From Escherichia coli (GTDB taxonomy: Bacteria > Pseudomonadota > Gammaproteobacteria > Enterobacterales > Enterobacteriaceae), in NCBI RefSeq assembly GCF_041886205.1, contig NZ_CP169029.1: a stretch of 64,000 nt of DNA; one strand, 5' to 3'. The translations under genes and the position numbers were made by a program. Below the pieces are notes generated by a model. That model did not search any database, was not told where the DNA came from, and saw only the letters and a program-made list of their open reading frames with translations. How positions within the stretch are numbered: the stretch's first letter is position 1; every line of letters begins with the position of its first letter. Below are positions 3,571-9,166 of the stretch, piece after piece.

Positions 3571-4050
3571 ACAGATTTCACGCTCAATCTCACGACGAGT
3601 CATGAGACCTTTCCATTGCTTACCGCCAGCATATGTCCAGCGACGTAGCTGATCACATGCGCCTTTGATATCGCCCTAGTTTATTTTGCGAAGAAGCGTC
3701 GATGTTCTGAAATTGCCAGCACCCACGTTGTAAACGAATGAGTAAAGAGCGCCGCGCATTGTTTCCGGTATATCGACTTTGATGTACGGGTTAATTTGTC
3801 TGGCGACCGTGGCAAGGTCTTTATTCAGGAGGGCTTTGCATTCTGCTTTGGTATACGTTTTACCGGGAATGATGTCTTTTCCTGTATGCCCGTGACATAC
3901 AGTCCATACACCAACAATATCTTTGTATGGTATGTAGCTGACACCTTCCAGACCATCGTTACCACTTGGGCCAGTAATTAACACTGATGCTATAGCAATT
4001 GCTCCGCCACCAATAGCAGCAGCAACGGCTTTTCGTAATGATGGAGGCAT
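3571..4050 (-). pseudogene. SAR-type endolysin (phage-21/DLP12 RrrD-like lysozyme) interrupted by an in-frame amber codon
   Basis: ORF ends at TAG (3676-3678) after 124 aa. The same frame continues for 34 more codons ([40 protein letters not shown]) to a TGA overlapping the Rz start. Looks like a CAG-to-TAG change. Confidence 0.7.
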
Positions 4051-4265
4051 TATTCACCTCTCGCAGCCTTGCGCTTATCTTCTTTAATCTTGAAATAAAG
4101 GTTTGTCAGGTACGTCAGCAGGCCAAATACCAGGCTACCCAGCACACCTATTGCTGCCCACTGTGAGGGCGTGACTTTATCGAGCAGCTGTAAAAACCAG
4201 TAACCGGCACTACCTGCTGAGGTGCCATAGGCGACACCCGTTGTTAACTTATCCATGGATTTCAT
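4050..4265 (-). CDS. Class II holin / pinholin (S21-like)
   Basis: [71 protein letters not shown]; two closely spaced Met starts as in phage-21 S. ORF-track start at 4310 is probably too far upstream. Confidence 0.8.
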
Positions 4266-4385
4266 AACCCCACCTCGCAGACAAAGCGGGTGTAAATTGA
4301 GGGAATACAACGTATCGCAAAAAAGCAGAAACGTAACAGACTCGGAGTCAGTGAATAACTCAGGTATTGGGTTATCAGCTAATAT

Positions 4386-4426
4386 CGAGACTCAAAAAAT
4401 GGAAAAACCCGCTCGACGGCGGGTTT
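4386..4426 (-). terminator. Candidate rho-independent terminator on the minus strand just upstream of the holin (possible tR'-like element)
   Basis: Minus-strand hairpin AAACCCGCCGTCGAGCGGGTTT followed by TTCCATTTTTTGAG. Confidence 0.4.
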
Positions 4427-4852
4427 AAGCTGTGTGACGAAGTAACCACTCTTAACAGCATAACCAATTTTTTACGTACGTAAACCACTAAATGATATTT
4501 GCGAGAATGCTACCGAGTATTGAAAACACCACTACAAATACATAAGCAAATCTCAACAAATAACCAACAAATAATTTCCAGCGTTATTTTTAGCTGGTTT
4601 AAATTGAACCTTCAAATTATAGAGCACTTATAAATAACAGCCATTAATATAAATTGGCTAATAGATTTATTTTTATTCAGCCAAGAGCCATGAATAGGAT
4701 TCGATAGAAAAAGTTCAGATAAAAATAGAGATCTACTTCACAAATCAAATGAGAAACCAAAACTTACATCTTGAAATAATCACATTGATTAGATGAATAT
4801 TTATCGCGCAGTGACATCATTTTTTAATAATAGTTCAAAAAAAGGGCTCACG

Positions 4853-5935
4853 ATGAAAAAATTAACAGTGGCAATTTCTGCTGTAGCTGCATCAGTACTG
4901 ATGGCGATGTCTGCTCAGGCAGCTGAAATTTATAATAAAGACAGTAACAAGCTGGATCTGTACGGGAAAGTTAATGCTAAGCACTACTTCTCCTCTAATG
5001 ATGCAGATGATGGTGATACTACTTATGCCCGTCTTGGCTTCAAAGGTGAAACCCAAATCAACGATCAACTGACTGGTTTCGGTCAGTGGGAATATGAATT
5101 CAAAGGCAACCGCGCTGAATCTCAAGGTTCCTCCAAAGATAAAACCCGTCTTGCCTTCGCTGGCCTGAAATTCGGTGACTACGGCTCCATCGATTATGGC
5201 CGTAACTACGGTGTAGCATACGATATTGGTGCATGGACCGACGTTCTGCCAGAATTCGGTGGCGATACCTGGACCCAAACAGATGTATTCATGACTGGTC
5301 GCACCACAGGTGTTGCAACTTATCGTAACAATGACTTCTTTGGTCTGGTTGATGGTCTGAACTTTGCTGCTCAGTATCAGGGTAAAAATGACCGCACTGA
5401 CGTAACTGAAGCTAATGGTGATGGTTTCGGTTTCTCCACTACTTATGAGTATGAAGGATTCGGTGTAGGTGCAACCTATGCTAAATCTGACCGCACTAAT
5501 AATCAGGTTATCTACGGTAACAACAGCCTGAATGCATCTGGTCAAAATGCTGAAGTATGGGCAGCTGGTCTGAAATATGATGCGAACAACATCTATCTGG
5601 CTACCACCTATTCTGAAACCCAGAACATGACTGTTTTTGGTAATAACCATATTGCCAACAAAGCACAAAACTTCGAAGTAGTTGCACAATATCAGTTCGA
5701 CTTCGGTCTGCGTCCGTCCGTTGCTTACCTGCAATCTAAAGGAAAAGACTTGGGTGCGTGGGGTGATCAGGACCTGGTTGAATATATTGATGTAGGTGCA
5801 ACCTATTACTTCAACAAAAATATGTCCACTTTTGTTGATTACAAAATCAACCTGATTGATAAGAGCGATTTCACGAAAGCATCTGGCGTTGCTACCGATG
5901 ATATCGTTGCTGTAGGTATGGTTTACCAGTTCTAA
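4853..5935 (+). CDS. nmpC: Outer-membrane general porin of the OmpC/OmpF/NmpC (phage Lc) family; appears intact
   Basis: [23 protein letters not shown] signal peptide, C-terminal …VGMVYQF, typical porin composition. Sits between Q and S on the opposite strand, as in DLP12 and PA-2. Confidence 0.8.
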
Positions 5936-6072
5936 TTTGATTACTAAAAGATATGTTGCGGGAGGCTTTGCCTCCCCAACATATAAGTGGCTCCCTCAAG
6001 CCACTTCCTTTAGGAGCACAACCTTGCTTCTAACTATATAAACCTTCTGTTATATATTACCCTTTATTTTTG

Positions 6073-6100
6073 GGGGCGTCTCAACGCCCCATTTTTAATA
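6073..6100 (+). terminator. Rho-independent terminator downstream of the porin gene
   Basis: GGGGCGTCTCAACGCCCC hairpin followed by ATTTTTAATAATTTTT. A second long hairpin (ATGTTGCGGGAGGCTTTGCCTCCCCAACAT) lies at 5957-5988. Confidence 0.5.
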
Positions 6101-6123
6101 ATTTTTAGTAAACAATTGGCATA

Positions 6124-6507
6124 TTAATTAGAGTTATTAACAACGATATCCATCTCTAACCGGATATCTAATGCCATTAACATCCCTTCAATTATGCCCT
6201 CAGCCTTCTGTAACCTTTTCCCGATATAACCATCAGAGCAGCAATGCTTACCTGCCAGTGACATGAATGTCATACCGACTACATAATAATCTACTAATAA
6301 ATCGTGCAAATCGCTGTTGTTCTTTTTCAGACGGGCCATGCACCCGCAAATAATCATCGCGTCATCGTCACAACATTGCGGGCGAGATTTTACTTTTGAA
6401 GTAATTAATCCCTTAAAACCGGCGGCAATGGACGACCAGGTCACATCTTCATGATTATTAGCCGCCCACGCTCCCCAACGCTCAAGAACCATCTGAATAT
6501 CACGCAT
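6124..6507 (-). CDS. quuD: Q-type late-gene antiterminator (DLP12 QuuD-like)
   Basis: [34 protein letters not shown]…[16 protein letters not shown]…; the ORF track extends 5 codons upstream. Confidence 0.8.
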
Positions 6508-6592
6508 CAACTTACTCCACAAAAATCAGACCAGAACGCCAATTACAAGCAAAAATCAACGAAACAGTATTAGTTGATTGTTATCTCTGACT

Positions 6593-6730
6593 TCATACTC
6601 CTGCTCCTGTCAGGGTTTTGGCGTAATTCTTCAGTATTCGGTAATCGGTCAAAACAGAACCGGGGAAACGATATAAGCGCAGACGCCCCCAGCGGTGGCG
6701 AAGACGTTCTGCCATATAAAACTCAAACAT
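6593..6730 (-). CDS. ylcG: Small nin-region ORF (YlcG-like, 45 aa)
   Basis: Own translation [48 protein letters not shown] overlaps the rusA stop (TGATG). Below the ORF-track size cut-off. Confidence 0.5.
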   Translation of the reverse strand: MFEFYMAERLRHRWGRLRLYRFPGSVLTDYRILKNYAKTLTGAGV

Positions 6731-7092
6731 CATTCATTCCCCATTTCGGTGATGGTCAGTTCCAGCCTCCCACCTTTGGTAACAGGCATCTTCACAACGC
6801 GGTAATCAACGACCTGAGCATCATCCAGCCAGAAACCTGCTTTAGTGAGTGCGTCAAAAGCGGCTTTTTGCAGATTATCCAGGTCACGGCGACGGCGATC
6901 CGGCATGTGGCACTCAATGCGGATTTTCACAGGCATAGCCAAGCCGATATCCAGCATTGCGTTTTTAATGATTCGGGCGACGTTATCGCGGTATGCCTGC
7001 CCCTCTGCGCTGACGTGCGTGCGCCCGCGATTATGGCGGTAATAGCGATTATTGCTCGGAGGCCAGGGTAATGTGATGCTGTAGGTATTCAC
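6730..7092 (-). CDS. rusA: RusA Holliday-junction resolvase
   Basis: [108 protein letters not shown]… 120 aa. Confidence 0.9.
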
Positions 7093-7951: not shown

Positions 7952-8274
7952 ATGACTAAAAATACTCGTTTTTCCCCCGAAGTCCGTCAACGGGCAGTCC
8001 GTATGGTTCTGGAAAGTCAGAGCGAATATGACTCACAATGGGCGACAATTTGTTCCATTGCTCCAAAGATTGGCTGTACGCCGGAGACTCTGCGTGTCTG
8101 GGTTCGCCAGCATGAGCGGGATACCGGGGGCGGTGATGGAGGGCTCACCACCGCTGAACGTCAGCGTCTGAAAGAGCTGGAACGTGAAAATCGTGAACTG
8201 CGCCGCAGTAACGATATCCTTCGCCAGGCTTCCGCTTATTTTGCGAAGGCGGAGTTCGACCGCCTCTGGAAAAA

Positions 8275-8278
<4 letters not shown>
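7952..8278 (+). CDS. IS3-family transposase OrfA (HTH + leucine zipper)
   Basis: [60 protein letters not shown]…. Confidence 0.85.

Positions 8279-9166
<888 letters not shown>

Follow-up and report, generated by a model that had tools for sequence, protein, structure and literature searches.

Lambdoid prophages of Escherichia coli can carry a porin gene in reverse orientation between the antiterminator gene Q and the lysis genes, which raises the question of where late transcription starts and whether it has to cross the porin in antisense. Here, we analyze one such locus in a 64-kb stretch of E. coli DNA (64,000 nucleotides, called the window below), on which an earlier note had proposed that it does. 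The minus-strand segment 7898-3092 of the window reads as part of a DLP12/PA-2-type lambdoid prophage, namely its right-hand control and lysis region, with the following features (window coordinates; roles in transcription are predicted).

Within 7898-3092, before Q, minus strand: upstream block with a NinB-like gene, YbcO, and RusA, in that order
6507-6124, minus strand: Q antiterminator gene, QuuD type, 127 aa, ATG at 6507 and stop at 6124 (Pfam PF06530, E=3.5e-53)
5936-6123, plus strand: 188-bp porin-Q spacer with three hairpins, holding the intrinsic terminator of the porin at 6073-6100 (terminator scan)
4853-5935, plus strand: porin gene, Lc/NmpC type, 360 aa (PF00267, E=3e-153)
4491-4852, plus strand: upstream regulatory region of the porin, AT-rich (29% G+C), part of the porin cassette and divergent from the putative pR'
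4484-4471 (-34 to -21), minus strand: candidate Q-binding palindrome TTTACGTACGTAAA, overlapping the -35 hexamer TTTACG (4484-4479)
4462-4457, minus strand: -10 hexamer TATGCT of the putative pR', 16-nt spacer from the -35 hexamer, predicted start A4450
4451-4427, minus strand: conserved initial transcribed region GAGTGGTTACTTCGTCACACAGCTT, nearly invariant across Q classes
4426-4394, minus strand: predicted tR'-like intrinsic terminator of the pR' leader, hairpin at 4426-4405 (+25 to +46) and U-run to 4394 (+57)
4265-4050, minus strand: holin/antiholin gene S, P21 type, 71 aa, first late gene (PF04971, E=2e-35; S71/S68 in the phage 434B annotation)
4050-3568, minus strand: endolysin gene R, SAR lysozyme (PF00959), amber codon at 3676-3678
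3568-3092, minus strand: spanin gene Rz (PF03245, E=3.7e-53)
3336-3151, minus strand: Rz1 embedded in Rz, open reading frame with a lipoprotein-like N terminus

Open reading frame calls and Pfam matches confirmed the layout described in the earlier note, with Q and S/R/Rz on the minus strand and the porin between them on the plus strand. The late genes S, R, and Rz/Rz1 (4265-3092) lie downstream of the putative pR' on the same strand, as in a lambdoid late cassette. The amber codon of the endolysin replaces Gln125 (alignment to K-12 RrrD), and the small open reading frames listed in 4300-4860 and 5930-6130 included none that looked meaningful.

A reversed porin between Q and the lysis genes is an arrangement already known, since 1985-86, and very common: nmpC was reportedly assigned to the defective prophage qsr' in 1985, and the sequence of lc is said to date from 1986. 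The 2.7-kb Q-porin-holin segment was found at 92 to 99% identity in 36 phage records, including PA-2 and 434B, and a 4.5-kb version was found in 1,819 of 5,426 complete E. coli genomes (a third). DLP12 (qsr') of K-12 has the same order and strands (quuD-nmpC-essD/rrrD/rzpD) and a 100% identical Q, and its nmpC-essD spacer matches ours exactly across promoter and hairpin; elsewhere the two spacers differ by four substitutions and by indels of 1 nt and 16 bp. It differs from the window in that nmpC is split by IS5, whereas the porin here is intact; in that the endolysin lacks the amber codon; and in having borD after the lysis module, where the window has trkG and a ParB-like gene, as the Rac prophage does. 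The lc locus of PA-2, a viable phage (GenBank J02580, 1986), has the same orientation as the window, with a Q-side spacer 98% identical and a porin (Lc) identical at 329 of 360 residues (90%); its record annotates two CRP sites and no late promoter or terminator. Phage 434B carries the K-12 DLP12 version, with nmpC split by IS5, and since isolated phages including 434B have the Q-porin-S layout, this layout supports lytic growth.

The porin has its own AT-rich promoter region and terminator, as the earlier note had held. The G+C content of the upstream region (4491-4852) was 29%, versus 49% for the whole window, and the terminator scan found a strong plus-strand terminator 3' of the gene (GGGGCGTCTCAACGCCCC plus ATTTTTAATAATTTTT, 6073-6100), 24 nt short of the Q stop codon. 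The PA-2 record places a CRP site at the position equal to 4724-4744 (J02580); the second "CRP site" in that record coincides with the conserved initial transcribed region of pR' (4428-4448). The product is a general porin of the OmpC/OmpF family, and its counterparts in related phages are annotated as OmpD, NmpC, or OmpC. Lying between Q and S at the same locus in 36 phages, with its own signals, the gene has the properties of a moron, and we regard it as an ordinary lysogenic-conversion gene, separately transcribed and no obstacle within the late operon.

The sole stretch of the window that resembled the pR' segment of Stx phages was 4485-4403 on the minus strand (77% identity). Its -35 hexamer TTTACG (4484-4479), 16-nt spacer, and -10 hexamer TATGCT (4462-4457) align with TTTACG-16 nt-TATCAT of the Stx phages, and the core motif occurs once in the 64 kb. 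The start of pR' in Sakai Sp5 was mapped by dRNA-seq at 1,266,203, and the 3' end of its Q-independent transcript was mapped by Term-seq at 1,266,460 (+258, at the second terminator), both in NC_002695.1 coordinates (Sy et al., PMC7547250). We moved these coordinates to NC_002695.2 by a uniform 142-nt offset deduced in this analysis; with the offset, the Sp5 start is positioned 7 nt past TATCAT and the 3' end comes to lie within the U-run of the second hairpin, and without it, neither mapped position makes sense. By transfer from this 77%-identical relative, we infer that pR' starts at about 4450 on the minus strand, a position equal to about 577,229 in K-12. The search for a late promoter and a Q-utilization site in 4430-4700 that the earlier note had proposed was productive, giving the two hexamers, the predicted start at 4450, and the candidate palindrome at 4484-4471.

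Only 8 of the 12 positions of the sigma-70 consensus are matched by the putative promoter, which a simple promoter scan did not list. After the -10 hexamer come the nearly invariant GAGTGGTTACTTCG(T/C)CACACAGCTT and then the hairpin, and an exact-pattern scan found the conserved initial-transcribed motif in at least 120 viral contigs. The initial transcribed region can form a small 5' stem (GUGG/(C/U)CAC) and may contain a sigma-dependent pause element; a search of the region by eye found no clear one, and the best -10-like hexamer, TACTTC at +7 to +12 (TACATT in Stx phages), is a weak match.

Homology to porin-less phages starts only at about 4490, on the pR' side of the porin, and the 188-bp Q-porin spacer was restricted to the 36 phage records that carry the porin. 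The homology of 4485-4403 to the mapped Stx pR', together with this porin-specific spacer, places the porin cassette (about 4490-6140) between Q and the predicted target promoter of Q, back to back with pR'; by the same comparison, the porin promoter region and pR' are predicted to be divergent neighbors. With a start near 4450, on the lysis-gene side, late transcripts would not cross the porin, and only early rightward transcripts passing through Q could enter it in antisense; on the minus strand, the hairpins after Q have no U-runs. With the porin cassette intervening, 1.6 kb separates the Q stop codon from the pR' homologue, so that the canonical adjacency of Q and pR' is absent while the logic of the late cassette is kept. 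In Stx phages of the 933W/Sp5 type (933W, Sakai Sp5/Sp15), which carry the same Q subfamily and are homologous to the window in promoter, initial transcribed region, and first hairpin, pR' instead overlaps the last codons of Q and no cargo lies upstream of the promoter.

The Q of DLP12 is said to act at a promoter directly upstream of essD, reportedly in work by Rueggeberg et al. (Microbiology 2013). For the K-12 nmpC-essD spacer, the supplementary data of an E. coli 3'-end study contained no entry for essD or nmpC, and nothing on nmpC-essD transcripts was found in the literature searched. A genomic-SELEX table lists an RpoS-holoenzyme site between insH and essD, at a resolution too coarse for use.

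The minus-strand hairpin with a T-run that the earlier note had seen at 4386-4426 proved real in scans and folds, at 4426-4394. The stem AAACCCGC/GCGGGTTT (4426-4405) has 8 bp, 5 of them G-C pairs, with a 6-nt loop and a free energy of about -12 kcal/mol, and it is followed by the tail UUCCAUUUUUU to 4394, as in a rho-independent terminator. The hairpin and U-run are terminator-like on the minus strand only, not on the plus strand; they begin about 25 nt past the predicted start of pR' and were the sole terminator-like site that the scan found between pR' and the holin. From the end of the U-run to the holin ATG at 4265 there is a 128-nt leader. The distance of about 80 bp given in the earlier note holds only for the longest open reading frame (TTG at 4310), and we place the holin start at ATG 4265 because it is supported by Pfam and by the phage 434B annotation.

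On its own, the hairpin could be due to chance (the scan gave 4 terminator-like sites in 3900-6800 versus 2.3 ± 1.7 in shuffles; fold z-score, -1.4), and its significance comes from conservation. Of the 55 promoter-type variants folded, 53 retain both hairpin and U-run (63 of the 67 sequences tabulated), and among these 55 distinct leaders the hairpin starts 20 to 40 nt after the conserved motif in all but two. At least six stem sequences occur (CCCGC/GCGGG, CCCGCC/GGCGGG, UCCGCC/GGCGGG, CCCGU/ACGGG, CCUCGC/GCGGGG, and CCCUGUCA/UGACGGGG), with compensatory changes at two stem pairs (RNAalifold); about 10 of 35 porin-type loci have a G-to-T change that breaks one stem pair. A hairpin kept at a fixed distance from the promoter despite turnover of its stem carries the signature of a functional terminator, and the proposal of the earlier note, that this is the late terminator read through by Q, is very probably right as a prediction for 4426-4394.

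In lambda, the Q-binding site lies between the -35 and -10 elements. A general statement in the Viruses 2018 pR' paper puts qut partly between -35 and -10, and the template of the complex loaded with Q21 was derived from pR'21 positions -40 to -1 (bioRxiv 10.1101/651190), from which we take the Q21 binding element to lie upstream of +1. The Q of the window is identical to K-12 QuuD, 77 to 78% identical to Q of the Stx phages 933W/Sp5, and a distant match to the solved Q21 structures 6P18 and 6JNX (E=7.5e-7 over 80 residues), which belong to the same Pfam family, PF06530. From the matches listed for the conserved motif (at least 120), we used the loci with a PF06530 Q upstream (n = 89), clustered their Q proteins with an 80% identity threshold, and sorted the loci by their sequence at -34 to -21. 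Among these matches, the palindrome class agreed with the Q cluster at every one of the 89 loci, irrespective of cargo, as follows (element at -34 to -21).

QuuD/Q933 group: TTTACrwwCGTAA, 40 of 40 loci
Q cluster 1 and three related singletons (6, 8, and 11): GCGTACGC, 19 of 19 loci
Q clusters 2 and 3 and a related singleton (10): GCGGyCCGC, 22 of 22 loci
Q cluster 4: TGTTATAACA, 4 of 4 loci
Q cluster 5 and a related singleton (9): TTCGTwACGA, 3 of 3 loci
Q cluster 7: GCGGAATTCC, 1 of 1 locus

Identical pairs of Q and palindrome flank many different cargos, and the palindrome overlapping the -35 hexamer and the spacer is a candidate Q-binding element. The correlation could come partly from co-inheritance of linked DNA, and because linkage alone might contribute to it, we treat the palindrome as a candidate only. 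The logic of this Q is presumably that of Q21, which uses an element in the promoter, promoter-proximal loading, and an RNA-exit-channel "nozzle" that prevents the terminator hairpin (bioRxiv 10.1101/651190); the Q21 element consists of two 8-bp subsites in direct repeat, whereas in the window the candidate is palindromic.

We consider it highly likely that pR' (4484-4450) is constitutive, that its transcripts stop at 4404-4394, and that the QuuD-type Q acts in trans to carry polymerase through the hairpin into S-R-Rz, leaving the porin uncrossed. The promoter would fire away from the porin, toward S-R-Rz, and without Q its transcripts would end after about 48 to 57 nt at the hairpin and U-run (4426-4394), so that the lysis genes would stay silent. 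Q made from the early rightward transcript, 1.6 kb away, would diffuse to pR', bind a site overlapping the -35 hexamer and spacer (candidate TTTACGTACGTAAA, 4484-4471), and load onto promoter-proximal polymerase, rendering it resistant to the hairpin as in the Q21 structures. On the plus strand, the AT-rich promoter region of the porin would drive its expression, with transcription ending at the porin terminator just before the Q stop codon. The analysis shows which genes are present, that 4485-4403 is homologous to the Stx pR' region, that the hairpin is conserved, and that palindrome class and Q type correlate; the start site in the window, occupancy of the palindrome by Q, and how efficiently transcripts terminate are what we infer.

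The model of the earlier note set pR' directly after Q, with about 1.7 kb of antisense transcription through the porin and the hairpin as a distant tR'. The textbook cassette does have pR' directly after Q (bioRxiv 10.1101/651190), and a Q-modified polymerase could read through the porin, the hairpins, and even the IS5 of phage 434B. However, a simple promoter scan found no minus-strand promoter-like site in the Q-porin spacer (6123-5936), and the spacer is specific to the porin cassette, with no counterpart in phages that lack the porin. The homologue of the mapped Stx pR' lies at 4485-4450, between porin and holin and single in 64 kb; the palindrome that tracks Q type is also there, and in every Q class the hairpin occupies +25 to +57 relative to that promoter. 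Antisense crossing of the porin by late transcripts is thus not supported, and we judge the model very improbable. Lower still is the probability, close to nil, that the hairpin is functionless and arose as an inverted repeat by chance. A single terminator-like site over 2.9 kb is no more than shuffled sequences give, and the z-score is unremarkable, but the hairpin recurs at this distance from the promoter in about 55 variants and at least six Q classes, with differing stems and loops, which effectively refutes this reading.

A stronger competitor, although still unlikely, is that the hairpin terminates only weakly or partially, or serves leader stability or pausing, and that silencing is exerted elsewhere, for example by Rho in the 128-nt leader or by weak translation. 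StxS, the 258-nt Q-independent pR' RNA, passes the homologous hairpin and ends at the second terminator (PMC7547250), so that in Stx phages the first hairpin is either leaky or yields a product of about 50 nt that the libraries missed; such products would easily be lost from RNA-seq and Term-seq libraries. The proximal U-run of the window is interrupted (UUUUUCCAUUUUUU), several porin-type loci have a stem mismatch, and the fold is unexceptional against shuffles, yet hairpin and U-run survive complete change of the stem sequence, as a terminator would. The window, moreover, has neither a second terminator-like site nor a StxS homologue between the hairpin and S: the extra 200 nt and second terminator that give the StxS small RNA in Stx phages are absent, the Stx query (L003 1181-1660) matches the window only at nt 21-102 (pR' and first hairpin), and the 3' 74-nt Hfq-binding part of StxS had no match in the window and no Rfam hit in 3900-6800. 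The Rfam search of 3900-6800 also gave a Trp-leader match over the hairpin (20.8 bits versus a cutoff of 41), which was rejected as generic terminator resemblance.

Late promoters cannot be located safely on the assumption that pR' follows Q. For this family of Q proteins, the conserved initial transcribed region (GAGTGGTTAC...) together with the hairpin is a better guide to pR', and 4484-4394 should be marked in annotation as pR' plus terminator. Among the matches listed, Q was on the strand of the promoter in all 89 loci, and the distance from the end of Q to the motif was 23 to 75 nt in 20 loci and 0.6 to 2.5 kb, with cargo, in 69. The long intervals among these matches formed 24 unrelated sequence clusters, the porin cluster being the largest (29 loci), and in 22 of the 24 the main open reading frames were antisense to Q. 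We propose tentatively, at slightly less than even chances, that in phages of the Q933/QuuD family the interval from the Q stop codon to the -35 hexamer of pR' is a dedicated slot for at least 24 unrelated cassettes, nearly all oriented away from pR' and expressed in the lysogen, with Q acting in trans over up to 2.5 kb via a type-specific palindrome. Cargo oriented away from pR' would be expressed in the lysogen and shielded from late transcription. No description of such a slot was found in the literature searched, and it may nevertheless be known.

Variable DNA between Q and pR' is a place to seek prophage-borne defense and conversion genes. Some of the cargo in this interval matched known or candidate defense proteins, namely PDC-S20 (a KAP NTPase, E=4.5e-177), PDC-M53 (PDC-M53A), a HEC-04-type ATPase, and PD-Lambda-1, the last being one of the two sense-strand cases; a lipoprotein was also present. 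Phage SfIV has the same layout, with IS1 and two antisense open reading frames, one of which (356 aa) was considered as another porin and rejected, as it is not a porin and had no Pfam hit. The cargo of Stx phages (tRNAs and stx), in contrast, lies downstream of the terminators in the sense orientation and is Q dependent.

The interval between Q and the late promoter pR' holds cargo other than the porin of the window. Among the matches listed from IMG/VR viral contigs carrying the conserved pR' transcribed motif (L011-L130), at least 24 unrelated cassettes of 0.6-2.5 kb separate a Q gene of the PF06530 type from its pR', with the main ORFs antisense in 22 of the 24. Matches to PADLOC families among this cargo were PDC-S20, PDC-M53A, HEC-04 and PD-Lambda-1; many cassettes comprised two genes, including a membrane protein, and had no database match. 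The window positions of the cargo interval and of a palindrome at pR' are as follows.

4490-6140, window instance of the Q-pR' cargo interval
4471-4484, palindrome overlapping the -35 element and spacer of pR', with counterparts at the equivalent position in L011-L130

Palindrome class tracked Q-protein cluster perfectly (89/89 loci among the matches listed, six classes), and by this sequence covariation the palindrome is a candidate Q-binding element. Q21, in contrast, binds a direct repeat.

The 1986 GenBank record of the PA-2 lc porin locus (J02580) annotates a CRP-binding site at positions 1067-1087, corresponding to window 4428-4448. This CRP assignment looks doubtful, because those 21 bp are where pR' has its conserved initial transcribed region, and they occur in porin-less phages too.

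From the promoter to the terminator hairpin, the window is identical to the cryptic K-12 prophage DLP12; between hairpin and holin gene S, DLP12 lacks 16 bp of leader (CTGCTTTTTTGCGATA) present at window 4306-4321. A G-to-T change (GCGGG to GCTGG) at the equivalent of window 4410 was found in L021, L042, L074 and identical copies (approximately 10 of 35 porin-type loci). The terminator stem loses one G-C pair through this change, and the hairpin, predicted at about -12 kcal/mol when intact, weakens to about -7 kcal/mol. In some prophages, late termination at such variants may be leaky. In the Stx phage phi467 (L008, 2501-2554), where Q is of the lambda type (PF03589), the leader is similar to the window-type element in its downstream half, which includes the hairpin, and two antisense ORFs likewise lie between Q and the promoter-leader. 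Exchange of leader and terminator may occur between Q families.

The lysis cassette of the window prophage is probably defective, because the endolysin R gene contains an in-frame amber codon (3676-3678, minus strand), replacing Gln125 of K-12 RrrD; the frame stays open past this codon up to the usual gene end. Two further features of the window are listed below.

568-2972, a pair of genes directly past Rz, namely trkG (491 aa, TrkH family) and one with a ParB-N domain
7952-9166, IS3-family insertion sequence adjoining the NinB-like gene and encoding HTH_Tnp_1, HTH_21 and rve domains

OrfB of the IS3-family element is broken into two ORFs at 8664/8675, and this split element is additional evidence of prophage decay. 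The Rac prophage of K-12 also has trkG and a ParB-N-domain gene as neighbours; therefore, a DLP12-type Q-porin-lysis module is fused here to Rac-type neighbours.
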